Shown: positions 4,036 through 51,874 of the stretch, in pieces
How positions within the stretch are numbered: position 1 is the stretch's first letter
Layout of the letters: each line of letters begins with the position of its first letter
NCBI GenBank assembly: GCA_964016885.1
Contig: OZ024740.1
Coordinates: 135,470,001 to 135,534,000 of the forward strand
DNA length: 64,000 bases
Source: Eledone cirrhosa
Taxonomy: Eukaryota
Direction: 5' to 3'
Notes under the pieces: generated by a model
Database searches by the model: none
What the model saw: only the letters and a program-made list of their open reading frames with translations
Told to the model about the DNA's origin: nothing
Translations under genes and position numbers: made by a program

Positions 4036-4348
4036 TTGGGTAGCTAGATAGAAGGTAATGATTGAATGGGGTCCTTGCATTTAACAAACGATTAACAAAA
4101 ATACAAAATTTGTTCTGTTCAATACGACCAAAAACTTTCGTATTTAACAATTAATAAATACAAAAAATGTAGATTGTTTTAGCGATAGATTGGCTATTTG
4201 GACTTGATACGAAATATGGATTGTTTTGAAAATACGCTAGGATTTGTGGAGGTAGAGATGAAGGAAAATATGTACATTACGTTACATGAATATCGTGGGG
4301 TAGACAGCAAAGCAATGAAATTTGGCGAAGTGAATTCCTATCATATAT

Positions 4349-4797
4349 CATCATCATCATCATCATCAACGTTTAACGTCCGTGTTCCACGCTTGCATGG
4401 GTTTGGACGGGGGTAGTCCCACTTGAGGCAAGAGTGATTGTCTTGCTCGCATAGGACTGTCTGGCAGGTTTTCTACAGTTGGATGCCCTTCCTAACACCA
4501 ACCACATTTACAGTGTGGGTCTGGGAGGTTTTTACCGTGTTGCCTACACGGCCACATTACAGCGTGGACTGTGTGTTTTTTTGTCGTGACACCTACACGA
4601 TCTCATTTGTTTCGGCCTCGATGGCGCGGCACCAACATAACTTTACATAGAACGGGGTGGTGTGGATCGGGTGGTGGTGGTGGGACGGGGTGTATTTTGT
4701 TAGAGATGCCTACTGGCTGGAGTAGGTTTTACTATATATTTAGGTAAGGCGGGTCTTCTCTGTTACTGAGTACCGCCAAAGGTCTCGGTCCAGTGAC

Positions 4798-4799
<2 letters not shown>
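4349..4799 (-). mobile_element. 5'-truncated RTE-A 3' fragment nested in the 5' region of the full-length copy
   Basis: Near-identical to 249-705 including the (CAT)n tail; ends in (TA)n(GA)n. Confidence 0.9.
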
Positions 4800-4829
<30 letters not shown>

Positions 4830-5518
4830 GGGGGGCCGCATGATGGTTGTGTGTGTTAGGCGTTTGACCGCCACATGCCTTCGAAGTAGCGGGTGGGGGG
4901 GGGGGTCGAGTGAGCGGGGGTTTCGAAAGAAGGAAAGGATTTTGTTTTTTTTTGTTTTGAAAATACGCTAGAATTAGGGATTGAGGTTTGAAAATACGCT
5001 AGGAATTAAGGTTTGAAAATACGCTAGATTAAGAATTAAGGAATTTATAAGAAGGAGGAGAGATAGAAGGTAATGATTGAATGGGGTCCTTGGATTTAAC
5101 AAGCGATTAACAAAAATACAAAATTTGTTCTGTTCAATACGACCAAAAACTTTCGTATTTAACAATTAATAAATACAAAAAATGTAGATTGTTTTAGCGA
5201 TAGATTGGCTATTTGGACTTGATACGAAATATGGATTGTTTAAAGCCAAAACAATGCAGGTATGGACATAGAATAAAGAATGCAAATGCAAAAGATATTG
5301 TTGACAATTAGTCTTTTACCTTAGATTTATTTAAATGTCCTTAATTTTCGAGATGATATCTCTTCTTCGGAGGGAAGTAAAGCGGTTAAACCAGTGTTCT
5401 AAATAGCTTGCCAAGAAACTCTTCCAGCTATCTGAAAAGCGCGCCAAAGCCGGCTGCCAAATAAACTTCCTAAAACGATGCCTGAATAACAACATCATCC
5501 CAAAAAACTATCAAAAAC

Positions 5519-7903
5519 TTGCACCTACCAACATGCTTCAAATCACCAGGCCTCAAACGATCACTTAGTTACATACAAAAATTCTGCCTAAGAAAACTCA
5601 TACAACACCTACACCGCACGCTACAACAACACATACGGACTATTTCCAGCCTTGTACCACAACTCGCTGAAACCCCAGAACCTCTGTCCAGAGTTATCTC
5701 CGCTGCTATAGACAGGTCATACCACCATCGCCGAGACTACGAGAAAATACGCCTAACGCAAAAATTTCTCAAACTCAGCACGGCTAACCGTCTTAACAAC
5801 ATCCCAACTCTAAGCACCAACAGAGGCGAACAAGACGGTACCAACACCGAACCTAGCGGCGCCCCGACCAACAACACACCTGACGCAAAACACCTCGTCA
5901 CAGACTTGACAGGATCCCTCTCCCGAGAGGAATTAGACCTCCTCAGCCTGGGTCCCAAGTTCATATTGAAACAGAGACTGGACGACAAATTATGGCACAA
6001 CATAGAAACGAATTTCTGTCGGGCTGCCTACCAACTAAAATGGATATCGACTCTCGGCAACAACACTACGGAATCTAACAAACCCAGATTCCCGATATAC
6101 CAACTGGATCACCCACTCTGTCCACCGCCTGCCAACCGCGAGCTTGAAGAAAAACTCTCGAGGCTAAAACATTCCGTATTTAACATCTTACGGAAACAGA
6201 AGATAGCCCCAAACCTCTCCAGGACACAACAACTCGCCCTGAAGAACCTACAGAATAGGGAACTTATATACTTACCATCCGACAAAGGTAAAGAGTTTTG
6301 CGTCATCTCTCAAGCCACATACAACAACCTAGCCTTTGAACACCTAAACGACAATGAATTATACACAGAGATCCCGGACATGACTGCAGGCCAGATCGAA
6401 AAACAGACCAACTCCATCTGGTTCGATATCTGTAGGAGAAGACAACTCCCAAATAAAGTTAAGCTCAACTACACCACTAGAAATAGCAGACTGCCCACTT
6501 TTTACCACCTCATCAAGACCCACAAGAATAGTACTAAGACGCAAATAAGACCCATCGTCTCTAGCATAGAAGGACCCCTATACAAAATTTTCTGGCTGCT
6601 CTCCCAGGTCCTCAAGCCTCTACTCTCCACCTTTCCAGGGCATGTCAGTAGCTCCGACAAAGTTATACGTAGACTACACCAACTCCAGCCAGAACATCTT
6701 AAACTAAATAGATACGCCTTTAGCCTCGACGTTGTCTCCCTCTACACTACAGTCCCCGCTCATCCAGCTGTCGATTTATTGACGGACTGCGTGGTCGCAG
6801 AGGACATCCACGGCTACGGCCTCCATCCGACGGACATACACCAGCTTTTGTCCTTCACAGTAGACAACACGTACTTCACCTTCTACCACGACACATACAG
6901 ACAGACAACAGGATTACCCATGGGATCCAGCCTATCGGGCCTGCTGGCCATTACCTATATGAACCAGCTAGAATGCCGAGTCCTCAACACCTGCCATTCC
7001 CATACCTTCTTCACCCTATATGTAGATAACATACTCATCCTTACATCATCCCGTAAGGAGGCAGATAAAATATACACAACATTCTCCAGCATGGAACACC
7101 TCGATGACCGCGGATCCCTATCCCTACTGGACTTCCAACTCAGGGTAACAGAAGAAGGCAACATCCACACCTGCTTCTATAAAAAAGCCGCCAGCAGGGA
7201 CCTGTTTGTACATTTCAGATCAGCCCTCCCAGCCGGCGCTAAGTTCGGATACATAAGGAACAAACTAACACGTATCCGGAACAAATGCACCAACGCTAGA
7301 GACCGAGACACACACACCACACATTTCCTGGAAGTACTCAAACTGAACGGATACACGACATCCACCACAAACCATGCCAGAAAGAACAGAGGACACCACA
7401 CCCGAGGCACTAACACTTGCTTCCTGAAGCTCCCACACTTCAGTGACGAAACAACAACAGCCATCCGCAGAGCTATCAGACGAGAAGGACTAGATATCCA
7501 ACTGGCCCACTCAGGTCCTTCTCTACACGGACAGCTAACCAAAAGACACTCCACCAGACATGACAACTGCTGCAGGCTAGCCAACTGCCCCATCAATGAC
7601 ACAGACCTATGCCACCAGGCTTACGTCGTATACAGACTAGAGTGTGACAAATGCAGCAACTTCTACGTAGGTAGCACCACCAGACCACTCCACATAAGAA
7701 TAAAAGAACACCTCAATACTAACGCTTCCTCATTTAAGAAACACCTAGTTAATTGCAAAAACACCGACAAAACCATAACAGTTAGGATAGAAACTAAGGA
7801 AAGAAACCTCGGCAATCTTAGAATTAAGGAAGCACTAATTATAGACAAAACACAAGCACCAATCAATAATAGACTAGAACTCAACACCCAATTTATAACT
7901 TGA
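5519..7903 (+). CDS. Penelope-type reverse transcriptase + GIY-YIG endonuclease, probably inactive (YVDN instead of YxDD)
   Basis: PSDKG, KTHK, RPIVS, SLDVVSLYT, GLPMGS, YVDN, LLDF; VVYRLECDKCSNFYVGST..RIKEH GIY-YIG. The frame continues upstream with FLKRCLNNNIIP. Confidence 0.9.
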   Translation: MHLPTCFKSPGLKRSLSYIQKFCLRKLIQHLHRTLQQHIRTISSLVPQLAETPEPLSRVISAAIDRSYHHRRDYEKIRLTQKFLKLSTANRLNNIPTLSTNRGEQDGTNTEPSGAPTNNTPDAKHLVTDLTGSLSREELDLLSLGPKFILKQRLDDKLWHNIETNFCRAAYQLKWISTLGNNTTESNKPRFPIYQLDHPLCPPPANRELEEKLSRLKHSVFNILRKQKIAPNLSRTQQLALKNLQNRELIYLPSDKGKEFCVISQATYNNLAFEHLNDNELYTEIPDMTAGQIEKQTNSIWFDICRRRQLPNKVKLNYTTRNSRLPTFYHLIKTHKNSTKTQIRPIVSSIEGPLYKIFWLLSQVLKPLLSTFPGHVSSSDKVIRRLHQLQPEHLKLNRYAFSLDVVSLYTTVPAHPAVDLLTDCVVAEDIHGYGLHPTDIHQLLSFTVDNTYFTFYHDTYRQTTGLPMGSSLSGLLAITYMNQLECRVLNTCHSHTFFTLYVDNILILTSSRKEADKIYTTFSSMEHLDDRGSLSLLDFQLRVTEEGNIHTCFYKKAASRDLFVHFRSALPAGAKFGYIRNKLTRIRNKCTNARDRDTHTTHFLEVLKLNGYTTSTTNHARKNRGHHTRGTNTCFLKLPHFSDETTTAIRRAIRREGLDIQLAHSGPSLHGQLTKRHSTRHDNCCRLANCPINDTDLCHQAYVVYRLECDKCSNFYVGSTTRPLHIRIKEHLNTNASSFKKHLVNCKNTDKTITVRIETKERNLGNLRIKEALIIDKTQAPINNRLELNTQFIT

Positions 7904-8282
7904 TAGAGCTTCTAGCCCCATATTTACACACACACACACGCACACACACACACACACGCTTACACCTCCACTTATTCTCTCTCACACACATACATAGACA
8001 CACAAAGACCAGTTCTAACACGAGATAACATCTATCCCCCACATTTACGTATAGACATATCTTCTCACACTCACACACACACACTCACATACTTACACCT
8101 TCATGCATTCTCCCACTCACTTAAACAGGCATGTGCAAAAAAAAAAACCTTTTAAAGGGAGACTACTCTTTATCCACCTAACCTTAACTCTTTGACGTTA
8201 GAGATAGAACAGATACTCTATACCATTTTCTGTCAGCATGACTTGGCAAGCTATTTAGAACACTGGTTTAACCGCTTTACTT

Positions 8283-8319
8283 CCCTCCGAAGAAGAGATA
8301 TTATCTCGAAAATTAAGGA
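8283..8319 (+). ncRNA. Minimal type I hammerhead ribozyme-like motif in Penelope pLTR (inverted copy at ~5338-5375, - strand)
   Basis: CCT-CCGAAGA-A-GAGATA/TATCTC-GAA-AATT(palindrome)-A-AGG. Confidence 0.6.
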
Positions 8320-8432
8320 CATTTAAATAAATCTAAGGTAAAAGACTAATTGTCAACAATATCTTTTGCATTTGCATTCTTTATTCTATGTCCATACCTG
8401 CATTGTTTTGGCTTTATTATACATATACAAAC

Positions 8433-10607: not shown

Positions 10608-10754
10608 TTTACACTCAAACCTCCTGTCAGATGATAAAGTATTGAATAACAACCTTTCTGTGCCTTTGAAATGTTCATAACAGGGTGATGTAATGGAATA
10701 AAACAATGTTTAATATGTGATACTGTCTCTCTTCCTTTTCTTAATATATATATA

Positions 10755-10810
<56 letters not shown>

Positions 10811-10813
<3 letters not shown>

Positions 10814-11435
10814 AAAAAATGAAATTGAAATTTCATTTCTCACTCTTAGTATGACTGATACTTAAATATAAATATGTATACGGACATACATATATGTATA
10901 CAAACATACAGTAGTATATATATACATACATGTACACATATATATAAATGTACGTATGGGTTTACCGAACATTTATTATAATGTTCGCTTTGTTTGTAAA
11001 CAAACAGCCCGAATTAAGCCGTACAGTGTTCGCAACCATCGTTGCCCTTTTGTTCAACACTGACAAAGGAACAATGAACTAGTTTCTAGCTTCTTAGCTG
11101 TCATCAGCACCGTATACCCTCCTGTCAATCGATTGAACGTTTGAAAGTATATAATTTCCTTATATATATATATATATATACTCAGCCATTAATATGCATA
11201 AGGAAAGTATATACTTTGAAACGTTTAATCGATTGACAGGAAGGTATACGGTGCTGATGGCAGCTTAGAAGCTAGAAACTAGTTCATCGTTCCTTTGTCA
11301 GTGTTGAACAAAAGAGCAACGATGGTTGCCGAACACTGTACGGCTTAATTCGGGCTGTTTGTTTACAAACAAACCGAACATTATAATAAATGTTTGCTAA
11401 ACCCATACGTACATATACATACTTATATTTATATA
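10811..11435. mobile_element. Two inverted copies of a ~400-bp hammerhead-bearing non-coding repeat (PLE pLTR/retrozyme-like)
   Basis: ~10948-11162 is the reverse complement of ~11198-11415; same family as the tandem copies at 32158-32961. Confidence 0.75.
11072..11112 (-). ncRNA. Minimal hammerhead ribozyme-like motif (partner on + at 11249-11289 with core CTGATGG)
   Basis: CGGTG-CTGATGA-C-AGCT..AGCT-A-GAA-ACTAGT-T-CATTG. Confidence 0.6.
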
Positions 11436-12599
11436 TATATATACCCGTCCCACCCTTGCAAGCAGGGAAAAAGCGGACGTAAAATGAAATGATGATGATG
11501 ATGATGATATACATTATTTCAAAATAATACAAAAGTATTAAAGTAACCAAATAGGTTTTATGACTTCCATCATATTTTCCTCTTCTTTTCTTTACCTTCC
11601 AACACTTCACTTCATTCTAAAACTGACCTGTTTCACCAGCTGCAACCAGAGTTTTTGATTAGTACAAAAGTGTTTCAAGTTGAGGAAGGTTATATGAGGT
11701 CATATCTGATCTAAAGATATAATAGCAGTCAGTACCCAGTCTATCTTTTTGTTTGGGTCAATCTGAAACTCTTCTCTAATAGGCAAAATGTTTCTTGGAA
11801 CAAGTCATTATTATATGTGTATCTGTATATGTGTGCATATGTGTATGTATGTATATGTATGTATGTATATATATATGTATATTTCTTTGTATTCACCTAT
11901 CTTTTGCTTATTTATGTATAGAACAAATGTGTTTGTCTTTAACTGTTTATCTTCTTGTTGTGACAGAGCATCGAATTGACTGGCGACATGCCATATTACA
12001 GAGGATCCGTTTCCTCATGCATACTCCGTTTTTATCTTAGTACAAAACCATAACCCTCCCCCACTTACTTCCTCCACCCCCATCTTGCCCGTTCAACTCT
12101 TTCCAGCATGGCAGCATCCCAGACCATATCACAAAGATGGAAGCACCCCCACCATCCACATACAACCCATGCCAACATAGAAAACCAAGCTAACCCCTAC
12201 CTCATACCATGATGAAATGCTCAGATGAGGTTGGGAAGGGCATCCAACTATGGAAGCCATGTGAAAACAAAACATGTAAACTAGACCATGTCTGGCCTAG
12301 TCTCAGTGCATAACAGTGCATCTGGCCCTGACAGAAAATAAATGTTTAATGATGATGATGTGAACCCTATCCCCCTTCCACATCCCCAATACCTTTTCCT
12401 CCAACCCATGTATGCATAGGAAGCTGAACTGTTTCACAATATATTGTCAAGGGCAACTCAATCTCTTCAAGGACACCCCCATTGTGGGATGCACTCCTAC
12501 TTAACAAGCAACATGTAGCCTGATACTTGCTCTCTCATCTTTCTTTTGTTATTACCTCCCCAGCTGGTCTAAGGACACAAAGAGCATTAAAATGTCTTA

Positions 12600-16219: not shown

Positions 16220-16221
<2 letters not shown>

Positions 16222-18964
16222 TACCACAATAATATCAGCTTACGCACCCCAATCGGGGCTGCCAGACGAACTTAAGGATAGGTTTTACGAGTCCCTAATA
16301 CACACTACTGCTCTAACAGACGACAAGGACTTCCTAATCATTGCAGGAGATTTTAACGGACGCGTAGGTAAACACTGCGACGGCTTCAATAGAGTACATG
16401 GAGGCCATGGAGTTGGCACAAGGAATGAGGAAGGATTCAGACTTCTAGAATTCTGCGACGCCAATGACATGTCGATATGTAACACAAACTTTAAAAAACC
16501 CGACAACCACCTGATCACCTATAGATCAGGGGAGCACTCTAGTCAGTTAGATTTTATCCTCATCAGAGGACGTGAGAGATGGACGGTCGTAAACACAAAA
16601 GCCTTCCCTAGTGAGGAATGTACATCCCAACATAGCTTAGTTGTCAGTGACCTCACGGTCAGAACTAGACGAGCCCTGAAACAGAGGCCAACCTGGAGAA
16701 GAAAGATCTGGAAGCTGAAAGTCCCCTCAACCAGTAACAGATTTAAAGATATTTTACTCAACGCCTACGACAGTAAAGAAGAACAGATAGAGACATTTAA
16801 CGTAGAAGAGAACTGGGAGTTCCTAAAAAATAACTTACTAGAGGCGACGGATGAGGTTTGTGGCTGGAGTAAGACCTCAAGCAGGAGGAGAGTGACTTGG
16901 TGGTGGAACAATAAGGTAGATGAAGCAGTCAAGGCCAAGAGACAGGCATGGAAAGAATGGAAGAACGGGGGGAGCAGGGTACATTACATAGAGACCAAGA
17001 GGGAAGCTAGGCGACAAGTATACTTAGCTAGGAGGGAAGCAGAGGATAGAAAATTCAAGCATGTTTTACAACGTGAGGACCAGAAACAGGAGGTATTCAA
17101 GATTGCGAGGCAGTGTGTCAGAGATAGTTGTGATGTCATTGGAGAGAAGTGTATCCGGAATGATAAAGGTGAGCTTGCCCTCACAAGTGCTGAGAAGAAA
17201 GATGCATGGAAGAGTCATTATGATAGATTACTAAATGAGGAGAATGCATGGGAAGAAGAGACCCTACCCCACGTAGACCCTATAGAGGGACCAGCAGTAC
17301 AAGTCAGCGGCAGCGTAGTAAGTAAGGCAATCAGAGATATGAAGATAGGGAAGGCAACCGGTCCATCGGGTATAGCTGCTGAGATGCTGAAGGCATCTGG
17401 GTCTGTAGGTCACACTATAACCACACGTATCGTTAACCAGGTAATACTAGAGGGGGCCATACCAAAAGATTGGTGCAGTAGCATCATTGTCAACTGCTAC
17501 AAAGGTAAAGGCGATGCACTAGATAGAGGAAACTATAGAGGTATAAAGTTGATGGACCAGGTCATGAAAGTAACAGAAAGAGTTATAGCACAGCTGATTA
17601 GGGACCGGGTGAATATAGACGAGATGCAATTTGGGTTTGTACCAGGGAAAGGCACCACTGATGCCCTCTTCCTTGTGAGGCAATTACAGGAAAAGTACCT
17701 AGCTAAAAGTAAGCCACTCTACTTGGCATTTGTCGACCTTGAGAAAGCCTTTGACAGAGTTCCACGTGCAGTAATCTGGTGGGCTCTTAGAAAACTAGGA
17801 GTAGATGAATGGCTTGTGAAAGCGGTACAAGCCATGTATAGGGGAGCAGTCAGCAAAGTTAGGATTGGCAATGAGTATAGCGAGGAATTTAGCGTACAGG
17901 TTGGGGTCCACCAGGGCTCTGTTCTTAGCCCTCTCCTGTTCATCATAGTCCTGCAGGCAATAACGGAGGAGTTTAAGACCGGATGCCCATGGGAACTCCT
18001 GTATGCTGATGACCTCGCACTCATAGCTGAATCTATGGTAGAACTAGAGAATAAATTCCAAACCTGGAAGCAGGGACTAGAGAGAAAGGGCCTCAAAGTC
18101 AACATGACAAAGACTAAGGTCCTTATAAGTAGACGAGAAAACAGAACCCAGATCCCCTCAGGGAAATGGCCTTGCTCAGTATGTAGGAAAGGTGTAGGTA
18201 GGAACTCCATTCTCTGCCCCAAATGCAAACAATGGGTACACAAGAGATGTAGCGGGATCTCAGGAAGCTTAATTAAGAATGTAGGATTCACATGCAGCAG
18301 CTGTGCTGAAACAGCAAGCAAACAGCCACAGGAAACAAGTACCACCAATCTCTGGGAGGGCCCTGTAGAAACAGTAGACAGCTTCTGCTACCTAGGTGAC
18401 CGAATTAGCAACGGAGGTGGGTGCTCAGAAAGTACAATAACTAGGGTAAGAACGGGATGGAAGAAGTTTAGGGAACTACTACCACTGCTAGCTGCAAAAG
18501 GCTTCTCCCTCAGAATGAAAGGCAGACTGTATGATGCGTGTATCCGAACAGCGATGTTGCATGGTAGTGAGACCTGGGCGCTGAAGGTGGAAGACTTACG
18601 TAGATTAGAGAGAAACGAAGCCTGCATGCTCCGATGGATGTGTAACAGTAATATACGTAAACGACAAAGCATAAAGGAATTGAGAGAGAGACTGAGCATA
18701 AGAGGAATCAAATGCTGCGTGCAGGAGAGGCGGTTACGCTGGTATGGACATGTGATGCGTATGAAGGATGACAGCTGCATAAAAAGGTGCAGAGCACTAG
18801 AAGTTGATGGAAACCGCGGAGTGGGGAGACCCAAGATGACTTGGGATGAGGTGATAAAAGCCGACCTTACCCAACTACACCTCTCAAAGTCAATGACACA
18901 CGACCGTGACTTCTGGCGTCACGCAGTAATACAGGGTACCCGACCGCCCATGGGTACATGCTGA
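16220..18964 (+). CDS. 5'-truncated RTE-B APE/RT/PHD reading frame (the MCLHICIYIY.. N-terminus in the ORF track is microsatellite-derived)
   Basis: Uninterrupted frame nearly identical to ORF 23789..26908. Confidence 0.85.
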
Positions 18965-19266
18965 AGCATATAAACAATATGCCCCCCCCCCCCCCACCGT
19001 AAGGTGGTCGTGGAGGTGCCACGGCAAAAAAGCACCCAGCCCACACTGTAAAGTGGACGTGTAGGCGCCACGAAAAAGCACCCAGCACTCACTGTAAATG
19101 AGGTTGGTGTTAGGAAGGGCATCCAGCTGTAGAAATCAAGCCAGATCAGTTCCTGTATGAGCAAGGCATGGTCAGCCGACCAGACACTGCCCACAACAGG
19201 ACAACCCGTCTAACCCATGCTAGCGTGGAAGAACGGACGTAAAACGGTGATGATGATGATGATGAT
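16220..19266 (+). mobile_element. RTE-B LINE, 5'-truncated, in a (TA)n tract
   Basis: Near-identical reverse complement of 23483-26533; starts at ITTIISAYAP after (TA)n; (GAT)n tail. Confidence 0.93.
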
Positions 19267-19277
19267 ATATATCTTAT

Positions 19278-20670: not shown

Positions 20671-20689
20671 TCTCCCTAATTCTAGTGTG

Positions 20690-21329
20690 ACAACCTTTTG
20701 CAAGCTACTGATGAGACTTGTGTTTGGAGCAAAGCACCAGCCTGACAGAGGGTGACCTGGTAGTGGAACAATACACTGGGTAGAGCTATTAAAGCCAAGA
20801 GACAGGTGTGGAAAGACTGAAAAAATGGCAGTAGCACAAACTGGTACCAGGTTGGCTAAGAGAGAAGCTAGATGACAGGTATATGCAGCTCGGAGAGAGG
20901 CTGAAAAAAGAAAGTTTGTCAATATCTTGCAATGTGAGGACCAGAGACGTGAAGTGTTCTGCATCACAAGGCCATGTGTCAGTAGGAATCAGGATGTAGT
21001 TGTGGAAAAGTGTGTTAGAAATGACACCGGTGCACTTAGCACCACTTATACTCAAAAGAAAGAAGCCTGGAAATATTACTATGAGAGAGAGACTGATGAA
21101 TGCACAGAATGGTCCGGAGGAGGAGAGACTACTCCCAATTTACCCAACAGAAGGACCAACTATTGAAGTTGACAGTTATAGGGTCAAAGAAGCAATTAAG
21201 ATGAAGAATGATAAAGCTGCATGACTTTCAGAGATAGTTGCTGAGATGCTAGAAGCACTGGGAGAAGTAGGAGTCAAACTAGTAACCTGTATGGTCAATC
21301 AGGCAATACCCAATGATTGGCGCAGCAGT
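20690..21329 (+). pseudogene. Old degenerate RTE, left half (ends at ..IPNDWRSS)
   Basis: Remnants of VTWWWN, EDQRREVF, EKCVRND with stops and frameshifts. Confidence 0.8.
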
Positions 21330-21887
21330 CATCATCATCATCATCAACGTTTAACGTCCGTGTTCCACGCTTGCATGGGTTTGGACGGGGGTAGTCCCAC
21401 TTGAGGCAAGAGTGATTGTCTTGCTCGCATAGGACTGTCTGGCAGGTTTTCTACAGTTGGATGCCCTTCCTAACACCAACCACATTTACAGTGTGGGTCT
21501 GGGAGGTTTTTACCGTGTTGCCTACACGGCCACATTACAGCGTGGACTGTGTGTTTTTTTGTCGTGACACCTACACGATCTCATTTGTTTCGGCCCGGAT
21601 GGCGCGGCACCAACATAACTTTACATAGGACGGGGTGGTGTGGATGGGGTGGGGGTGGTGGTGGTGGGACGGGGTGTATTTTGTTAGAGATGCCTACTGG
21701 CAAGGCGGGTCTTCTCTGTTACTGAGTACCGCCAAAGGTCTCGGTCCAGTGACATTGTCTTGGAGAGGTGTAAGTGTGTGAGGTCGGAGTTTATCAGCTC
21801 GTCCCAGGTTTTTCTAGGTCTGCCTATTCCGTGGCTACCGTCTATCTTTATTGCCCTGCACTTTGTTATACAGCTATCGACTTTCAA
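21330..21887 (-). mobile_element. RTE-A 3' fragment
   Basis: Matches 41402-41959 reverse complement. Confidence 0.9.
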
Positions 21888-21946
21888 TATATATATTTTA
21901 AAAAAAAATAAGACTTCAGTTGCATTTTCGATTTCATCTCTTTTTC

Positions 21947-21956
21947 TATATATATG

Positions 21957-22051
<95 letters not shown>

Positions 22052-22140
22052 GTATATATATATGTATATATATATGTATATATATATGTATATATATATA
22101 TATGTGTATATATAAATATATGTAAATATATATATATATG

Positions 22141-22187
<47 letters not shown>

Positions 22188-22248
22188 GTATATATATATG
22201 TATATATATATGTATATATATATGTATATATATATGTATATATATATG

Positions 22249-22314
<66 letters not shown>
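21947..22314. repeat. (TA)n/(TATG) compound microsatellite
   Basis: Direct inspection. Confidence 0.95.
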
Positions 22315-22540
22315 CAGATCAGAGCAAACAGCACGGACACTCTATCTCAAAATTATTTTTGAAAAGCATTTAGAAATGCACAACCGGTAAAAACTTAAAA
22401 ACTTAAAACCACAACTGAATACTAACCCATACAATGACTAATACTCTTTTATTCCTAATTAAACCATTTTTCAACTGTGAACAATTTGTCAACATTTTCT
22501 ATTCCGTTTACCAATATATATATGTATATATACATATATG

Positions 22541-22579
<39 letters not shown>

Positions 22580-22647
22580 GTATATATATGTATATATATA
22601 TATGTGTGTATATATATATATGTATATATATATATATGTGTATATAT

Positions 22648-22994
22648 CATCATCATCATCATCATCAACGTTTAACGTCCGTGTTCCACGCTTGCATGGG
22701 TTTGGACGGGGGTAGTCCCACTTGAGGCAAGAGTGATTGTCTTGCTCGCATAGGACTGTCTGGCAGGTTTTCTACAGTTGGATGCCCTTCCTAACACCAA
22801 CCACATTTACAGTGTGGGTCTGGGAGGTTTTTACCGTGTTGCCTACACGGCCACATTACAGCGTGGACTGTGTGTTTTTTTGTCGTGACACCTACACGAT
22901 CTCGTTTGTTTCGGCCTGGATGGCGCGGCACCAACATAACTTTACATGGAACGGGGTGGTGTGGATGGGGTGGGGGTGGTGGCGGGACGGGGTG

Positions 22995-22995
<1 letters not shown>
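22648..22995 (-). mobile_element. RTE-A 3' UTR fragment
   Basis: Matches 249-600. Confidence 0.9.
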
Positions 22996-23485
<490 letters not shown>

Positions 23486-23788
23486 TCATCATCATCATCA
23501 TCACCGTTTTACGTCCGTTCTTCCACGCTAGCATGGGTTAGACGGGTTGTCCTGTTGTGGGCAGTGTCTGGTCGGCTGACCATGCCTTGCTCATACAGGA
23601 ACTGATCTGGCTTGATTTCTACAGCTGGATGCCCTTCCTAACACCAACCTCATCTACAGTGAGTGCTGGGTGCTTTTTCGTGGCGCCTACACGTCCACTT
23701 TACAGTGTGGGCTGGGTGCTTTTTTGCCGTGGCACCTCCACGACCACCTTGCGGTGGGGGGGGGGGGGGGGCATATTGTTTATATGCT

Positions 23789-26700
23789 TCAGCATGTACC
23801 CATGGGAGGTCGGGTACCCTGTATTACTGCGTGACGCCAGAAGTCACGGTCGTGTGTCATTGACTTTGAGAGGTGTAGTTGGGTAAGGTCGGCTTTTATC
23901 ACCTCATCCCAAGTCATCTTGGGTCTCCCCACTCCGCGGTTTCCATCAACTTCTAGTGCTCTGCACCTTTTTATGCAGCTGTCATCCTTCATACGCATCA
24001 CATGTCCATACCAGCGTAACCGCCTCTCCTGCACGCAGCATTTGATTCCTCTTATGCTCAGTCTCTCTCTCAATTCATTTATGCTTTGTCGTTCACGTAT
24101 ATTACTGTTACACATCCATCGGAGCATGCAGGCTTCGTTTCTCTCTAATCTACGTAAGTCTTCCACCTTCAGCGCCCAGGTCTCACTACCATGCAACATC
24201 GCTGTTCGGATACACGCATCATACAGTCTGCCTTTCATTCTGAGGGAGAAGCCTTTTGCAGCTAGCAGTGGTAGTAGTTCCCTAAACTTCTTCCATCCCG
24301 TTCTTACCCTAGTTATTGTACTTTCTGAGCACCCACCTCCGTTGCTAATTCGGTCACCTAGGTAGCAGAAGCTGTCTACTGTTTCTACAGGGCCCTCCCA
24401 GAGATTGGTGGTACTTGTTTCCTGTGGCTGTTTGCTTGCTGTTTCAGCACAGCTGCTGCATGTGAATCCTACATTCTTAATTAAGCTTCCTGAGATCCCG
24501 CTACATCTCTTGTGTACCCATTGTTTGCATTTGGGGCAAAGAATGGAGTTCCTACCTACACCTTTCCTACATACTGAGCAAGGCCATTTCCCTGAGGGGA
24601 TCTGGGTTCTGTTTTCTCGTCTACTTATAAGGACCTTAGTCTTTGTCATGTTGACTTTGAGGCCCTTTCTCTCTAGTCCCTGCTTCCAGGTTTGGAATTT
24701 ATTCTCTAGTTCTACCATAGATTCAGCTATGAGTGCGAGGTCATCAGCATACAGGAGTTCCCATGGGCATCCGGTCTTAAACTCCTCCGTTATTGCCTGC
24801 AGGACTATGATGAACAGGAGAGGGCTAAGAACAGAGCCCTGGTGGACCCCAACCTGTACGCTAAATTCCTCGCTATACTCATTGCCAATCCTAACTTTGC
24901 TGACTGCTCCCCTATACATGGCTTGTACCGCTTTCACAAGCCATTCATCTACTCCTAGTTTTCTAAGAGCCCACCAGATTACTGCACGTGGAACTCTGTC
25001 AAAGGCTTTCTCAAGGTCGACAAATGCCAAGTAGAGTGGCTTACTTTTAGCTAGGTACTTTTCCTGTAATTGCCTCACAAGGAAGAGCGCATCAGTGGTG
25101 CCTTTCCCTGGAACAAACCCAAATTGCATCTCGTCTATATTCACCCGGTCCCTAATCAGCTGTGCTATAACTCTTTCTGTTACTTTCATGACCTGGTCCA
25201 TCAACTTTATACCTCTATAGTTTCCTCTATCTAGTGCATCGCCTTTACCTTTGTAGCAGTTGACAATGATGCTACTGCACCAATCTTTTGGTATGGCCCC
25301 CTCTAGTATTACCTGGTTAACGATACGTGTGGTTATAGTGTGACCTACAGACCCAGATGCCTTCAGCATCTCGGCAGCTATACCCGATGGACCGGTTGCC
25401 TTCCCTATCTTCATATCTCTGATTGCCTTACTTACTACGCTGCCGCTGACTTGTACTGCTGGTCCCTCTATAGGGTCTACGTGGGGTAGGGTCTCTTCTT
25501 CCCATGCATTCTCCTCATTTAGTAATCTATCATAATGACTCTTCCATGCATCTTTCTTCTCAGCACTTGTGAGGGCAAGCTCACCTTTATCATTCCGGAT
25601 ACACTTCTCTCCAATGACATCACAACTATCTCTGACACACTGCCTCGCAATCTTGAATACCTCCTGTTTCTGGTCCTCACGTTGTAAAACATGCTTGAAT
25701 TTTCTATCCTCTGCTTCCCTCCTAGCTAAGTATACTTGTCGCCTAGCTTCCCTCTTGGTCTCTATGTAATGTACCCTGCTCCCCCCGTTCTTCCATTCTT
25801 TCCATGCCTGTCTCTTGGCCTTGACTGCTTCATCTACCTTATTGTTCCACCACCAAGTCACTCTCCTCCTGCTTGAGGTCTTACTCCAGCCACAAACCTC
25901 ATCCGTCGCCTCTAGTAAGTTATTTTTTAGGAACTCCCAGTTCTCTTCTACGTTAAATGTCTCTATCTGTTCTTCTTTACTGTCGTAGGCGTTGAGTAAA
26001 ATATCTTTAAATCTGTTACTGGTTGAGGGGACTTTCAGCTTCCAGATCTTTCTTCTCCAGGTTGGCCTCTGTTTCAGGGCTCGTCTAGTTCTGACCGTGA
26101 GGTCGCTGACAACTAAGCTATGTTGGGATGTACATTCCTCACTAGGGAAGGCTTTTGTGTTTACGACCGTCCATCTGTCACGTCCTCTGATGAGGATAAA
26201 ATCTAACTGACTAGAGTGCTCCCCTGATCTATAGGTGATCAGGTGGTTGTCGGGTTTTTTAAAGTTTGTGTTACATATCGACATGTCATTGGCGTCGCAG
26301 AATTCTAGAAGTCTGAATCCTTCCTCATTCCTTGTGCCAACTCCATGGCCTCCATGTACTCTATTGAAGCCGTCGCAGTGTTTACCTACGTGTCCGTTAA
26401 AATCTCCTGCAATGATTAGGAAGTCCTTGTCGTCTGTTAGAGCAGTAGTGTGTATTAGGGACTCGTAAAACCTATCCTTAAGTTCGTCTGGCAGCCCCGA
26501 TTGGGGTGCGTAAGCTGATATTATTGTGGTAATTGTCTTATTCAGGACTAGTCTGAGTTTAATGATTCTTGCATTTACCCTGTACACTGAGATTACTTTA
26601 TCTACCCACTTGTCAGCTAATAGTATACCTACACCACCCATCCCATCGTCATTTCCCACCCAGAAAAATTTGTAGCACTGGCTTTTTCCTACAAGGACTC

Positions 26701-26908
26701 TAGCAGACCCTCCTCTCCATCTAGTCTCTTGCACACAGCATACATCAACTTCCTTTCGCTCTAGCATTTCTACGATTTCTCCTGCTCTTCCTTTCATTGA
26801 GCCTACATTGATGGTACCAACTCGGAGTTTTGGGCATTTGTCGACACTCGTAGGGGAGGGTCTCTGGGTTGGCGCTTCACGTGGGTGCTTGGTAGCTCGC
26901 AGATTCAT
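23789..26908 (-). CDS. Intact RTE-B ORF: APE endonuclease + RT with internal PHD finger (1039 aa)
   Basis: ATG start; RVGTINVG, VQETRW, GDFNGH, FVDLEKAFD, LYADD, FCYLG; CSVC/CPKC/HKRC/CSSC. Confidence 0.95.
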   Translation of the reverse strand: MNLRATKHPREAPTQRPSPTSVDKCPKLRVGTINVGSMKGRAGEIVEMLERKEVDVCCVQETRWRGGSARVLVGKSQCYKFFWVGNDDGMGGVGILLADKWVDKVISVYRVNARIIKLRLVLNKTITTIISAYAPQSGLPDELKDRFYESLIHTTALTDDKDFLIIAGDFNGHVGKHCDGFNRVHGGHGVGTRNEEGFRLLEFCDANDMSICNTNFKKPDNHLITYRSGEHSSQLDFILIRGRDRWTVVNTKAFPSEECTSQHSLVVSDLTVRTRRALKQRPTWRRKIWKLKVPSTSNRFKDILLNAYDSKEEQIETFNVEENWEFLKNNLLEATDEVCGWSKTSSRRRVTWWWNNKVDEAVKAKRQAWKEWKNGGSRVHYIETKREARRQVYLARREAEDRKFKHVLQREDQKQEVFKIARQCVRDSCDVIGEKCIRNDKGELALTSAEKKDAWKSHYDRLLNEENAWEEETLPHVDPIEGPAVQVSGSVVSKAIRDMKIGKATGPSGIAAEMLKASGSVGHTITTRIVNQVILEGAIPKDWCSSIIVNCYKGKGDALDRGNYRGIKLMDQVMKVTERVIAQLIRDRVNIDEMQFGFVPGKGTTDALFLVRQLQEKYLAKSKPLYLAFVDLEKAFDRVPRAVIWWALRKLGVDEWLVKAVQAMYRGAVSKVRIGNEYSEEFSVQVGVHQGSVLSPLLFIIVLQAITEEFKTGCPWELLYADDLALIAESMVELENKFQTWKQGLERKGLKVNMTKTKVLISRRENRTQIPSGKWPCSVCRKGVGRNSILCPKCKQWVHKRCSGISGSLIKNVGFTCSSCAETASKQPQETSTTNLWEGPVETVDSFCYLGDRISNGGGCSESTITRVRTGWKKFRELLPLLAAKGFSLRMKGRLYDACIRTAMLHGSETWALKVEDLRRLERNEACMLRWMCNSNIRERQSINELRERLSIRGIKCCVQERRLRWYGHVMRMKDDSCIKRCRALEVDGNRGVGRPKMTWDEVIKADLTQLHLSKSMTHDRDFWRHAVIQGTRPPMGTC

Positions 26909-27160
26909 ATTTCATCTATTGATTCAGAGTTGCTCGTGTATTCCCAGCTCATCCATCCATAACGGTGGGAAAATTGAGGGCTAGAAGGACAGTGGTGGTG
27001 GGGTAATGGCAGGGTGTGTTGGGATGCGCCAGAGGAGGAGAGAGTTAGTTAGGCAGGTAGTAGCAGCAGCAGCAGTGGAAATGGCATGCTAGGTTTGATT
27101 GGTCGAATAGACTATGGTGGTGTGTGGGGGTGGGGGGGAGGGGGGGAGGGAAATTGTGAG

Positions 27161-30100
27161 GTAGGAACTGAGGGTCGCATGGTAAATATCCAAGTTAATA
27201 CTACATCAGTAAAATTAACAATAATAACGTCATGAAAAAAGCTACTAAGAGAAACCCTCGAAAATTTATCGCTAATACAGCAGGGAAAATTTAACGCTAA
27301 TACAGCAGGGAACATCATAATATTAACGACATGAAAAAGCTACTAAGAGAAACCCTCGAGAATTTATCGCTAATACAGCAGGGAAAATTTAACGCTAATA
27401 CAGCAGGGAACATCATAATATTAACGACATGAAAAAGCTACTAAGAGAAACCCTCGAAAATTTATCGCTAATACAGCAGGGAAAATTTAACGCTAATACA
27501 GCAGGGAACATCATAATATTAACGACATGAAAAAGCTACTAAGAGAAACCCTCGAGAATTTATCGCTAATACAGCAGGGAAAATTTAACGCTAATACAGC
27601 AGGGAACATCATAATATTAACGACATGAAAAAGCTACTAAGAGAAACCCTCGAAAATTTATCGCTAATACAGCAGGGAAAATTTAACGCTAATACAGCAG
27701 GGAACATCATAATATTAACGACAATATGTAGGCTAAAATACCTTCGTAGATTAGGTGGATGGCTGGCTGGGAAAATTGAACCAGCTCTAGTGGTACATTT
27801 TAGCAGAGAAGAATGGCAAAGTGTCTTATCTCTTCAATATTTTCAGATTGAATGAATTAGGTTAAAGACAGGGTAGTAAGCCTTAAAGAAGTGCATAGAG
27901 GGAGGGGGGGGGGTAGGAACTGAGGGTCGCATGGTAAATAACTGAGAGAGATACAATAGGATTAGAATACCGCATGGTAAATATCCAAGTTAATAAGTTA
28001 ATACTACATCAGTAAAATTAACAATAATAACGTCATGAAAAAAGCTACTAAGAGAAACCCTCGAAAATTTATCGCTAATACAGCAGGGAAAATTTAACGC
28101 TAATACAGCAGGGAACATCATAATATTAACGACATGAAAAAGCTACTAAGAGAAACCCTCGAGAATTTATCGCTAATACAGCAGGGAAAATTTAACGCTA
28201 ATACAGCAGGGAACATCATAATATTAACGACATGAAAAAGCTACTAAGAGAAACCCTCGAAAATTTATCGCTAATACAGCAGGGAAAATTTAACGCTAAT
28301 ACAGCAGGGAACATCATAATATTAACGACAATATGTAGGCTAAAATACCTTCGTAGATTAGGTGGATGGCTGGCTGGGAAAATTGAACCAGCTCTAGTGG
28401 TACATTTTAGCAGAGAAGAATGGCAAAGTGTCTTATCTCTTCAATATTTTCAGATTGAATGAATTAGGTTAAAGACAGGGTAGTAAGCCTTAAAGAAGTG
28501 CATAGAGGGGGGGGGGGGGTAGGAACTGAGGGTCGCATGGTAAATAACTGAGAGAGATACAATAGGATTAGAATACCGCATGGTAAATATCCAAGTTAAT
28601 AAGTTAATACTACATCAGTAAAATTAACAATAATAACGTCATGAAAAAAGCTACTAAGAGAAACCCTCGAAAATTTATCGCTAATACAGCAGGGAAAATT
28701 TAACGCTAATACAGCAGGGAACATCATAATATTAACGACATGAAAAAGCTACTAAGAGAAACCCTCGAGAATTTATCGCTAATACAGCAGGGAAAATTTA
28801 ACGCTAATACAGCAGGGAACATCATAATATTAACGACATGAAAAAGCTACTAAGAGAAACCCTCGAAAATTTATCGCTAATACAGCAGGGAAAATTTAAC
28901 GCTAATACAGCAGGGAACATCATAATATTAACGACAATATGTAGGCTAAAATACCTTCGTAGATTAGGTGGATGGCTGGCTGGGAAAATTGAACCAGCTC
29001 TAGTGGTACATTTTAGCAGAGAAGAATGGCAAAGTGTCTTATCTCTTCAATATTTTCAGATTGAATGAATTAGGTTAAAGACAGGGTAGTAAGCCTTAAA
29101 GAAGTGCATAGAGGGGGGGGGGTAGGAACTGAGGGTCGCATGGTAAATAACTGAGAGAGATACAATAGGATTAGAATACCGCATGGTAAATATCCAAGTT
29201 AATAAGTTAATACTACATCAGTAAAATTAACAATAATAACGTCATGAAAAAAGCTACTAAGAGAAACCCTCGAAAATTTATCGCTAATACAGCAGGGAAA
29301 ATTTAACGCTAATACAGCAGGGAACATCATAATATTAACGACATGAAAAAGCTACTAAGAGAAACCCTCGAAAATTTATCGCTAATACAGCAGGGAAAAT
29401 TTAACGCTAATACAGCAGGGAACATCATAATATTAACGACAATATGTAGGCTAAAATACCTTCGTAGATTAGGTGGATGGCTGGCTGGGAAAATTTGAAT
29501 CAGCTCAGTGGTACATTTTAGCAGAGAAGAATGGCAAAGTGTCTTATCTCTTCAATATTTTCAGATTGAATGAATTAGGTTAAAGACAGGGTAGTAAGCC
29601 TTAAAGAAGTGCATAGAGGGGGGGGGTAGGAACTGAGGGTCGCATGGTAAATAACTGAGAGAGATACAATAGGATTAGAATACCGCATGGTAAATATCCA
29701 AGTTAATAAGTTAATACTACATCAGTAAAATTAACAATAATAACGTCATGAAAAAAGCTACTAAGAGAAACCCTCGAAAATTTATCGCTAATACAGCAGG
29801 GAAAATTTAACGCTAATACAGCAGGGAACATCATAATATTAACGACATGAAAAAGCTACTAAGAGAAACCCTCGAAAATTTATCGCTAATACAGCAGGGA
29901 AAATTTAACGCTAATACAGCAGGGAACATCATAATATTAACGACAATATGTAGGCTAAAATACCTTCGTAGATTAGGTGGATGGCTGGCTGGGAAAATTT
30001 GAATCAGCTCAGTGGTACATTTTAGCAGAGAAGAATGGCAAAGTGTCTTATCTCTTCAATATTTTCAGATTGAATGAATTAGGTTAAAGACAGGGTAGTA

Positions 30101-30867
30101 AGCCTTAAAGAAGTGCATAGAGGGGGGGGGGGGTAGGAACTGAGGGTCGCATGGTAAATAACTGAGAGAGATACAATAGGATTAGAATACCGCATGGTAA
30201 ATATCCAAGTTAATAAGTTAATACTACATCAGTAAAATTAACAATAATAACGTCATGAAAAAAGCTACTAAGAGAAACCCTCGAAAATTTATCGCTAATA
30301 CAGCAGGGAAAATTTAACGCTAATACAGCAGGGAACATCATAATATTAACGACATGAAAAAGCTACTAAGAGAAACCCTCGAGAATTTATCGCTAATACA
30401 GCAGGGAAAATTTAACGCTAATACAGCAGGGAACATCATAATATTAACGACATGAAAAAGCTACTAAGAGAAACCCTCGAAAATTTATCGCTAATACAGC
30501 AGGGAAAATTTAACGCTAATACAGCAGGGAACATCATAATATTAACGACAATATGTAGGCTAAAATACCTTCGTAGATTAGGTGGATGGCTGGCTGGGAA
30601 AATTGAACCAGCTCTAGTGGTACATTTTAGCAGAGAAGAATGGCAAAGTGTCTTATCTCTTCAATATTTTCAGATTGAATGAATTAGGTTAAAGACAGGG
30701 TAGTAAGCCTTAAAGAAGTGCATAGAGGGGGGGGGGGGGGGTAGGAACTGAGGGTCGCATGGTAAATAACTGAGAGAGATACAATAGGATTAGAATACCG
30801 CATGGTAAATATCCAAGTTAATAAGTTAATACTACATCAGTAAAATTAACAATAATAACGTCATGAC
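27161..30867. repeat. Higher-order tandem array: 6 full units (~752, 606, 603, 504, 507, 608 bp) plus a partial unit, each full unit with 2-5 copies of a 98-bp subrepeat
   Basis: GTAGGAACTGAGGGTCGCATGG at 27161, 27913, 28519, 29122, 29626, 30133, 30741; subrepeat starts at 27331, 27429, 27527, 27625. Confidence 0.95.
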
Positions 30868-30869
30868 GT

Positions 30870-31870
30870 ACAATCATAAATTGCTACAAGGATAAAGGTA
30901 ATGTTCTAGAAAGGAGCAACTATAGAGGAATAAAACTAATGGACTAAGTTATGAAAGTGACGGAAAGAGTTACAGCACAGCTAATTAGGGAAAGAGTCAC
31001 ATTAGACGAGATGCAGTTTGGTTTCATGCCTGGGAAAAGTACTATGGATGCTCCTCTTCTTAGACAATTACAAGAGAAATTCTTAATCAAGAATAAGACG
31101 CTATATTTAGCTTTTGTTGATCTATATAAGGCTTTGACAGAGTACCTTGATCTATTATATGGTGGTCCTTAAAGAAATTAGGTGTAGAAGAATGGCTTGT
31201 GAGATCAGTGCAAGACAGATAAATATCTGTAAAGTAAGGGTAGCAAGTTTAGTGAGGAATTCATGGTTCAGGTAGGAGCTTGGTTCTTAGTTTACTACTA
31301 TTTGTCATAGTTCTCCAGGCCATAATAGAGAGGAGTTTATGACTGTCTGTCCATGGGAATTTTTTTACATGGATAATCTGATCCTTATAGCTGAATTCAT
31401 AAAAGAACTAGTGAATAAGTTCTGACTATAGAAATAGAATTTGGCATAAAAAGGTCTGAGAGTAAACTTATCCAAAACTAAAGTGCTAGTAAGTAGGAAA
31501 GAAAATAGGACTCTGATTCCCCCAGGGAAGTGGCCCTGCTCAATATGTAGAAACGGAATAGGCATAAACTCTATATGTAAGTGTAAGTCCTGGGTATGCA
31601 AGAGATGTAGTGGGATAATGAGTAGACAAACAGGAAGGGAAGACTTTGTATGTAGATGTACAGGAGAAATCAAGGATATAAACCTTTTTCAATCACAGGA
31701 AGGATCCATAGAAGTGATTGATAGCTTCTGCTATCTAGGTGACCTTATTAGCAGTGGATGTGAGTGTTCTGAGTGCATAATAGCTAGAATAAGGAAGTTT
31801 AGAGAGCCAGTCCCACTGTTGACAACAACAGATTTCTCCCTACATACAAAAGGATAACAGTATGATACCT
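30870..31870 (+). pseudogene. Old degenerate RTE, right half (starts TIINCYK..), including a degenerate PHD finger
   Basis: NYRGIKLMD*VMKV, LAFVDL, GKWPCSICRNG, DSFCYLG; continues the frame broken at 21329. Confidence 0.85.
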
Positions 31871-32125: not shown

Positions 32126-32157
<32 letters not shown>

Positions 32158-32161
<4 letters not shown>

Positions 32162-32961
32162 GGAAAAAATGAAACAAAATTTCATTTCCCACTCTTAGTA
32201 CTGCTGTTACTTAAATATAAGTATGTATACGTACATACATATATGTATACCGATGTACAGTAGTATGTATATATATATACATACATGCACACATATATAT
32301 ATGTACGTATGGATTCACCAAACATTCATTACAATGCTCGGTGTGTTTGTAAACAAACATCCCGTATTAAGCCGTAGTGTCTAGCAACCACCGTTGCTCG
32401 TTTGTTCAACACTGACAAAGGAACGCTGTACTAGTTTCAAGCTTGTCAGCTATCGTCAGCAACGTATACCTTCCTGCCAGATGGTTGAACGTCCGAAAGT
32501 ATATACTTTCCTTATGCATATTAACGGCTGAGTAGCTCAATTTGCATATCGAGTGGGTTAATCGGCCGGGTGCACCGAAAACGATAAACGGAAAAAATGA
32601 AACGAAATTTCATTTCCCACTCTTAGTACGGCTGTTACTTAAATATAAGTATGTATACGTACATACATATATGTATACAGATGTACAGTAGTATGTATAT
32701 ATATATACATACATGCACACATATATATATGTACGTATGGATTCACCAAACATTCATTACAATGCTCGGTGTGTTTGTAAACAAACATCCCGTATTAAGC
32801 CGTAGTGTCTAGCAACCACCGTTGCTCATTTGTTCAACACTGACAAAGGAACGCTGTACTAGTTTCAAGCTTGTTAGCTATCGTCAGCAACGTATATCTT
32901 CTGCCAGATGGTTGAACGTCCGAAAGTATATACTTTCCTTATGCATATTAATGGCTGAGTA
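32158..32961 (-). mobile_element. Tandem dimer (428-bp period) of the hammerhead-bearing non-coding repeat
   Basis: Units start at 32158 and 32586; hammerhead motifs at 32424-32464 and 32852-32892 (CGTTG-CTGACGA-T-AGCT..AGCT-T-GAA-ACTAGT-A-CAGCG). Confidence 0.8.
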
Positions 32962-50567: not shown

Positions 50568-51874
50568 CAGGGTGTGGACGATATTTGTTCGCAATTTTCA
50601 ACTGCTAATTTTATGCAAATTTTTTTTACTTCCGTTGTCACTCTTGTCTTCATAAAAACAGTGAGTATATTTCCATTATTTATTTTCAGAATAATTGATT
50701 ATGAATAATTTTGAACCTCCAAATTTGTGGAAGAGACACGGAGTTCTTCTTGGAATCCGCGCCAGGAGGACAAATAAGGAAATTTCAGACTTTCTCAGCG
50801 TCAGTAGGAGAATGGTGGAAAAGGTCAGAAAGGAATTGGAAGATTCAAGATTCGACTACGAAGCAACATCAGAGAGGAAAACAAATGATCGACGATCTGA
50901 CGCCTTCAGAATGCCCGAGTTCGTCGCTGAAGTTCAGGATATCATCAACAAGGAACCTAGCAAGTCGGTGCGTGCCATTGCAAGGGAGAAAGGCGTGGAT
51001 GAAAAGCTCATTAGGCTGGTGGTACATGAAGACATTCACTACGTTTCATACAAGATGAGGAAAGGACAATTTCTCTCAAAGGCGATGCAAGAAAAGCGAC
51101 TGAAGCACACAAAGAAGCTGATCAACAAGTTGAAACACCCACTGGATCCAGACATGCTGTGGTTTTTCTCCGACGAGAAAAACTTTTGCCAAGGCCAGAA
51201 GATCAACTCCCAGAACAACAGGTGGCTCGCTGTCTCATCCAAAGACGTGCCCAGAATTCATGCAGACAAAGTTTCCAGCAACAACATTGGTCTTAGGTGT
51301 CGTCAGCAATCAAGGTGACGTCATGCTACCTCACTTCTTCCCTGAGGGCCTCAAGCTGAACACCGATGGCTACATCCGTGTTCTGAGCGAGGTAGTAAAG
51401 CCCTGGATTGACCAGGTAGCTGAAGGTAGGCCATACGTGTGGCAGCAAGACTCAGCGCCCTGCCATACCAGCCGAAAGACCCAAGCCTGGCTGTCAGAGA
51501 ACTTCGTCGACCACACTTCACCTGACATCTGGCCTCCCAGCTCGCCTGACTGCAACTCCCTCGACTCCTTTGTGTGGGGCGCAGTGGAACGAGACACCAG
51601 CAGATCTAGCTGCAATACGAAAGACGATCTGAAGGCCAGGATCACAAATGCCTTTAGGGGCCTAAGTTGGGGGACAGTGACGAAGGCCTGTAGCCGGTTC
51701 CGAGGTCGCCTTGAGGCCGTCATCAAAGCCAATGGCGGGTTTATCGAGTGAGACGAAAGAACAAGTCATGAAGACAAACTGACCCAAGTTTGATAAATAT
51801 ATCTTAAAAAATAAAACTACTGTGTTATTTTTTCCTAGACAGTAATCTTGCAAACAAATATCGTCCGCACCCTG
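50568..51874 (+). mobile_element. Tc1/mariner-superfamily DD37D (maT-type) transposon, inserted in a piggyBac-like MITE remnant
   Basis: TIRs CAGGGTGTGGACGATATTTGTTCGCAA / TTGCAAACAAATATCGTCCGCACCCTG, TA flanks; flanks rejoin to match 60277-60371. Confidence 0.92.
50701..51751 (+). pseudogene. DD37D transposase with one frameshift near 51260
   Basis: FSDEKNF, WQQDSAPCH, WPPSSPDCNSLD; 37 residues between the 2nd and 3rd D. Confidence 0.9.

Follow-up and report, generated by a model that had tools for sequence, protein, structure and literature searches.

A tandem array of predicted promoter units forms the open-ended 5' end of a young LINE in Eledone cirrhosa

In HeT-A and TART, the promoter comes from the 3' end of the upstream neighbor within telomeric head-to-tail arrays, and tandem copies are known for the A-module of Dictyostelium TRE5-A. 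This 200-bp 5' module of a non-LTR element has promoter activity (PMC3159450). The 5' untranslated regions (UTRs) of mouse L1Md (A, Tf, Gf) and rat L1 consist of a monomer array and a tether of ~250 bp (PMC5381506). How the mouse array gains monomers is open, with support for both cDNA-level and crossing-over models; more broadly, the question of how LINEs hold on to a promoter while continually losing 5' sequence has no settled answer, even in mouse L1 (PMC6454616). A DPE at +28 to +32 is used by jockey, Doc, G, I, F, SART1, TRAS1, and L1Tc (PMC4748587). The octopus element RTE-2_OV is assigned a 5' UTR of ~600 nt in a paper whose main text uses neither "monomer" nor "tandem" (PMC9115989); likewise, the main text of PMC13282606 contains neither "monomer" nor "UTR". 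Searches of openly accessible papers turned up no RTE for which such a stack has been described.

Here, we describe such a stack on a LINE family, termed RTE-B, in a 64,000-nucleotide stretch of the E. cirrhosa genome (contig OZ024740.1, positions 135,470,001 to 135,534,000), referred to as the window. In our main reading (probability roughly 0.6), this young LINE has an open-ended 5' array whose units act as promoters and whose stack is rebuilt at or near each insertion. The element and its array comprise the following features:

23482..23788, minus strand: 3' UTR and (TGA)n tail, ~300 bp
23789..26908, minus strand: single intact ORF of 1,039 aa (AP endonuclease, reverse transcriptase, PHD finger)
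26909..27160, minus strand: unique 5' UTR (tether, ~250 bp) with a CCAAT box and a GT/G-rich box
27161..30867, minus strand: 5' monomer array of the RTE-B LINE, six full units plus 127 bp
27161..27912, minus strand: unit 1, nearest the ORF, with a head of the short type H1 and 5 sub-repeats
27822..27855, minus strand: predicted core promoter of unit 1, with Inr TCATTC (A+1 at 27853), G at +24, and DPE AGACA at +28 to +32
27913..29121, minus strand: units 2-3, each with 3 sub-repeats; the T18 tail and the s12 sub-repeat are both private to the locus
29122..30132, minus strand: units 4-5, 2 sub-repeats each; common tail T0; mosaic block
30133..30867, minus strand: unit 6 (T18 type) and the terminal partial unit

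The RTE-B ORF carries PF03372/PF14529, PF00078, and PF00628 domains, and no further ORF of at least 150 aa was present in 26909-30867, hence the element has no ORF1. Sampled copies share a short 3' UTR (~300 bp) with a (TGA)n tail. A homolog search returned relatives with 45-55% identity, none carrying a clade name. The L1 clade combines ORF1 and ORF2, a poly(A) tail, and a CpG-rich 5' UTR; RTE-B has one ORF, a (TGA)n tail, and monomers of 36% GC. RTE-B is a very young single-ORF LINE, likely of the RTE clade judging by its structure. The PHD finger lies at residues 777-820, between the reverse transcriptase (RT) and the C-terminus, and was also seen in many of the 120 relatives listed.

RTE-B resembles several of these systems in part. 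As in RTE-2_OV (PMC9115989) and Perere-3 (PMC8501958), one ORF encodes endonuclease and RT and the 3' tail is a simple repeat; RTE-2_OV also has a zinc finger, comparable to the RTE-B PHD finger. The Perere-3 5' end is fixed by a twister ribozyme (PMC8501958), whereas RTE-B has no fixed end: an Rfam scan of 26850-28600 gave no match at E ≤ 1 (a threshold that a divergent ribozyme could still escape), the monomer contains no hammerhead core, and the array ends are scattered. Like mouse and rat L1 (PMC5381506, PMC6454616), RTE-B places variable tandem monomers on a ~250-bp tether, is truncated inside the array, shows in young copies some enrichment of ends near a predicted start, and has unrelated monomers in different families. 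Unlike L1, it is a single-ORF APE-RT-PHD element without ORF1, and its units are A+T-rich, 400-700 bp long, and hold a nested 98-bp repeat in 0 to 19 copies. The L1 array is a CpG island with YY1, compared with a predicted Inr-DPE in RTE-B, where end clustering is weak and arrays are nearly unique to each locus. Jockey-type promoters (PMC4748587) are similarly TATA-less, with the DPE at +28 to +32 inside the transcript, as predicted for RTE-B; those elements carry one promoter at a fixed 5' end, whereas the predicted motif recurs in every RTE-B unit. The first-pass annotation had drawn analogies with both mouse L1 and HeT-A/TART. The first holds, in the tether with its variable monomer stack, a predicted Inr-DPE per unit, and monomer turnover between families. 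The second fails, as the RTE-B monomer and the 3' end of the element do not match, distal flanks are diverse host DNA, and copies are dispersed; what RTE-B would share with HeT-A/TART is a solution to promoter loss at each copying step.

Each RTE-B unit consists of a head (73 or 124 bp), n copies of the 98-bp sub-repeat, a tail of ~180 bp, and a G tract of variable length (8 to 14 letters). The array begins ~10 bp past the G-rich box and ~60 bp past the CCAAT box (ATTGG, 27098-27102). Units start at 27161, 27913, 28519, 29122, 29626, 30133, and 30741, giving lengths of 752, 606, 603, 504, 507, and 608 bp followed by a 127-bp partial unit, and 18-mer copies per unit (10, 6, 6, 4, 4, and 6) correspond to 5, 3, 3, 2, 2, and 3 sub-repeats. 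The hierarchical array of six-plus units noted in the first-pass annotation is real. That annotation had also taken a variant of units 4-5, AAATTTGAATCAGCTCAG, as private and as a sign of stepwise duplication. The variant is tail type T0, the commonest type, present at 11 sampled loci, and the relationship is reversed: variants found only at this locus sit in units 1, 2, 3, and 6. Because these four units carry locus-only variants and units 4-5 carry common T0, the window array is a mosaic of a private type and T0.

The association of array and element extends across the genome, in which we counted 396 exact 30-mers spanning the UTR-array junction and 767 exact 28-mers of the monomer tail. A query of 5' UTR sequence ending 40 bp short of the array had 1,607 candidate matches, 40 of which were scored, and all of the best 30 run into the array; all 16 array loci fetched by a monomer search sit on RTE-B. 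On C1, the 100 tail 28-mers among the matches listed fall into 30 clusters, 28 of which adjoin an exact junction (paired by eye) and two of which lie on full-length copies with a variant junction, leaving none of these 30 unlinked to the element. In raw reads from another sample, the 98-to-98 joint was present in 999 reads and the UTR-to-head joint in 394, with the tail-G tract-head joint also covered, and a contig from a further run spans the ORF start to the head with zero substitutions. As the first-pass annotation had proposed, the array forms the element's 5' end and moves with it; it is a family-wide feature.

Array length and 5' ends were compared across 59 loci, comprising 57 consecutive C1 junction loci and two long arrays, which bias the sample slightly toward length. 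The C1 set was drawn from 58 consecutive junction loci less one duplicate, with nine further listed C1 loci left out. L111, a duplicate of L110, was omitted from every count, and L124 (gap in the body) from body statistics. The analysis of ends also set aside L024, whose array extends past the stretch, and L030, whose end is inverted. A full body was present in 58/59 loci and an intact ORF in 45/57. Arrays ranged from 27 to 7,478 bp (median 1,141), and their lengths fit an exponential distribution whose mean of 1.7 kb was taken from the data (KS P = 0.84). No shared terminal sequence or fixed terminus was found among the 59 loci, and ends fell in head, sub-repeat, and tail in proportion to segment length (chi-square P = 0.60). 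Within this spread, 13 of 59 ends lay in tail positions 105-144 against 3.8 expected, a zone itself found by scanning (scan-corrected P = 0.0085), and inclusion of the long-array set gave 17/72 (P = 0.005); the other 46 of the 59 ends fell outside this predicted promoter zone. The enrichment was not replicated in older or variant monomer copies, in which only 2 of ~30 ends, from noisy end calls, lay at +1 to +33. The ending rate in the array (0.59 per kb) approximates that of the body, for which exact 25-mers (4173, 3451, and 828) give only a crude figure (4,173 to 828 matches over 2.9 kb), as they sample unevenly and subfamilies match differently.

Some features of the insertion sites were recorded alongside. 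In 17 loci with non-(TA)n flanks, target-site duplications were 2-7 bp and mostly indistinguishable from microhomology, with one 19-bp match in a minisatellite. Among the 57 C1 loci, 25 had (TA)n-rich DNA in both flanks, 8 in the 5' flank alone, 7 in the 3' flank alone, and 17 in neither, which may reflect either targeting of (TA)n or its production at insertion. L110 and L111 (C1, 248.09 and 249.02 Mb) represent the same insertion and flanks present twice in opposite orientation, either a segmental duplication or an assembly duplicate. Many young copies of both families described here (L074-L076, L214-L219) are located in one 18-bp minisatellite region at about 7.7-9.4 Mb of C1.

The tail zone in which ends are enriched also contains the predicted Inr-DPE. 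A motif scan, using the consensus letters of Inr and DPE and G+24, placed the A+1 equivalents of units 2-6 at 28460, 29066, 29571, 30075, and 30680. There is one match per unit, in the element sense only, with the DPE exactly at +28 to +32; matches arose in 0.7% of resampled monomers, or 0.07% with G+24. At 58 loci lacking an exact junction, the Inr-DPE spacing was kept in 27/27 motif zones while the flanks gained indels, and an Inr-like YYA(T/C)TC was present in 26 of the 27, the last being cut at +1; the DPE served as search anchor, such that only Inr and spacing count in this test. From these motifs and their conservation, each 400-700-bp unit quite probably functions as an internal RNA polymerase II promoter. 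RAD read-end pile-ups at 27777, 27858, and 28019 were considered as candidate signals of a start near +1 and discarded, since they coincide with the only three AATT sites of the stretch and are likely a library artefact.

The monomer itself has changed over the history of the family. Older copies, with bodies 96-99% identical, carry a homologous ~300-bp monomer that lacks the 98-bp repeat, and one of them shows a ~80-bp precursor duplication. Copies with one sub-repeat per unit have 6.2 private body changes, compared with 1.7 in copies with several (P = 1e-6). The monomers without the 98-bp repeat in older copies and the larger number of private changes in one-sub-repeat copies therefore show that the unit hierarchy grew stepwise along with the element. 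Single units with 10-19 sub-repeats were observed at L084, L105+106, and L124, and at L105 a nested 123-bp variant block is repeated across four units.

Units are homogeneous within loci and differ between them. Among 219 tails, identical pairs made up 76% of comparisons within loci and 5% of those between loci. Twelve tail types restricted to one locus each occupy at least three units, the extreme being 12 of 12 in L025; of the 47 private tail types, 32 occur in single units. None of the 1,225 pairs formed by 50 loci has exactly the same first two units, and four pairs match by unit count and tail type, although unit-parsing failures and sequence errors inflate this uniqueness. Bodies free of private changes can carry arrays as long as 7 kb, and older copies do not have longer arrays (rho = -0.41 for length in bp, where subfamily is a confounder; rho = -0.17 for length in units, P = 0.21, not significant). 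The plus strand of the window corresponds to cDNA in the direction of synthesis. Five loci (L029, L086, L105, L108, and L124) show back-jumps onto the unit 1 head, most of them at microhomologies, and short templated duplications lie at the extreme 5' end at five others (L021, L033, L112, L116, and L129). The array of L030 ends in an inverted array piece (5' inversion), as twin priming would yield.

Regrowth at retrotransposition is tentatively favored over slow expansion at the DNA level because units are homogeneous per locus, arrays are near-unique, length shows no gain with age, and both back-jumps and an inversion are present. In the mechanism we propose, transcription would start in any unit and continue across the units below it, then the tether and the ORF, and reverse transcription would halt at a random point. 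Copies passing the tail of unit 1 would retain a full Inr-DPE promoter together with the CCAAT and GT boxes of the tether. Without regrowth, the stack would shorten each cycle; nascent cDNA may, however, anneal anew at a site of homology or microhomology further down, either on its own template or on a second RNA, such that units are copied again. Re-copying would offset unit loss, and one or a few units would serve to rebuild the stack at or close to each insertion. That regrowth is coupled to reverse transcription, as opposed to growth at the DNA level, we infer at about even odds, and within-locus homogeneity and back-jumps could also be produced by DNA slippage or unequal exchange. More tentative is the fuller proposal that RTE-B has no true 5' end, its RT re-priming repeatedly on its own RNA to give each insertion a fresh stack that at times mixes two RNAs, with sister families behaving alike on unrelated monomers.

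Three other explanations bear on this reading. An independent satellite or an assembly artefact that merely abuts the LINE here could be entertained insofar as the window array was read from the assembly alone, yet both versions fail because the tail clusters listed on C1 (30/30) sit on the LINE and other samples contain the joints, both in raw reads and in contigs. The monomer has, in addition, altered in step with the element body, and we consider this explanation extremely improbable. It is also improbable, to a lesser degree, that the array is a passive VNTR in the 5' UTR, with transcription from the tether or flanking host promoters and an Inr-DPE that arose by chance. Such a repeat would fit the spread of most ends by sequence length, the resemblance of array and body ending rates, the CCAAT and GT boxes of the tether, and the absence of the end hotspot in older copies. 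Against it, the exact Inr-DPE spacing has outlived many indels in the flanking monomer, array ends that fall in the tether show no single start, and two families each hold a monomer stack at the same place.

The remaining explanation accepts a promoter stack but places every gain of units at the DNA level in source copies, through slippage, unequal sister exchange, or ectopic conversion; long arrays would be transcribed more, and daughters would inherit truncated prefixes. Periodic higher-order patterns (L036, L095, L114, L101, and L031) and a rearranged unit that is repeated in L086 fit unequal exchange, variants are common to related copies (L079/L083 and L039/L117), and for mouse L1 both models find support (PMC6454616). 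Growth of this kind alone nevertheless seems unlikely to us, as no pair among the 50 loci has exactly the same first two units even though bodies are ~2 private changes apart, length does not increase with age, and duplications and an inversion lie at the very 5' joint.

A second family in the window, RTE-A, has an ORF 75% identical to that of RTE-B and occupies 247-5241, with its array as follows:

4040..5241, minus strand: RTE-A 5' monomer array, with an unrelated unit of ~500-570 bp, split by an RTE-A 3' fragment

Genome-wide, exact RTE-A 5' UTR 25-mers numbered 766. The stack was entered by 26 of the 30 top matches and by 21 of 30 unselected C1 loci, and at least two unit starts were present within 1.5 kb in 18 and 6 of these, respectively (two loci are in both sets). 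The RTE-A and RTE-B monomers are unrelated (best match E = 0.45), whereas the CCAAT/GT box is common to both (81% over 47 bp), which points to monomer turnover on a retained tether. A shared 9-mer considered as a sign of kinship between the monomers was within chance, and an apparent RTE-A end hotspot among top matches was dismissed after end calling was found to have overshot into microsatellites. Several RTE-A copies (L147, L150, and L166) show 5' back-jumps of 113-167 bp.

The monomer-promoter design thus occurs outside L1, being family-wide on RTE-B, with a predicted promoter role and putative regrowth, and the second family with its unrelated monomer suggests convergence with rodent L1. 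Because hundreds of young, nearly identical copies have units marked by variants, counting can test the two current models, array growth in the course of cDNA synthesis or priming versus unequal crossing-over. If the RT does re-prime and the element has no true 5' end, RTE-B would be a natural high-copy system for the question of monomer-promoter regrowth. Such arrays are prone to mislabeling as satellites, in which case the true length of the element is underestimated, and they scatter several hundred predicted promoters across the genome.

In the window, RTE-B interrupts an older LINE, the surroundings being organized as follows:

20689..21327, plus strand: left half of the old host LINE, with GT at its end
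21328..23481, no strand assigned: repeat stack between the host and the RTE-B tail, made up of (TA)n runs, two 3' fragments of RTE-A, and a dispersed repeat of 200 bp
30868..31869, plus strand: duplicated GT, then the right half of the old host LINE

The array ends at 30866-30867 and, after the 2-bp GT, the host LINE continues in register (..PNDWRSS / TIINCYK..), as the first-pass annotation had stated in placing the array end where the host resumes. On the other side, the host does not stop at the 3' end of the element; its left half ends at 21327, and 2.15 kb of other repeats intervene, either later insertions at the tail or part of one composite event. At this single host site bounded by GT, three same-strand LINE ends are stacked with (TA)n and the 200-bp repeat. 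No 3' transduction source was found for 21328-23481: its 200-bp piece belongs to a dispersed repeat (775 candidates), and at 10 of 11 other loci inspected no RTE lay within 1.5 kb of it.

Several other repeats were observed in the window. A second RTE-B copy at 16220-19272, cut at about residue 127, is inverted relative to 23478-26533, 99.5% identical to it, and 4.2 kb away. A long plus-strand ORF at 5486-7903 (805 aa stop to stop), flanked by a 175-bp inverted repeat pair (5241-5415 and 8242-8416), presumably encodes a Penelope-type RT with a GIY-YIG end, judging from its motifs. Two overlapping plus-strand frames at 50695-51751 read like what we take to be a Tc1/mariner-type transposase. Finally, 32156-32961 holds two nearly identical 379-bp copies, in tandem, of a dispersed repeat that is related to 10744-11443.
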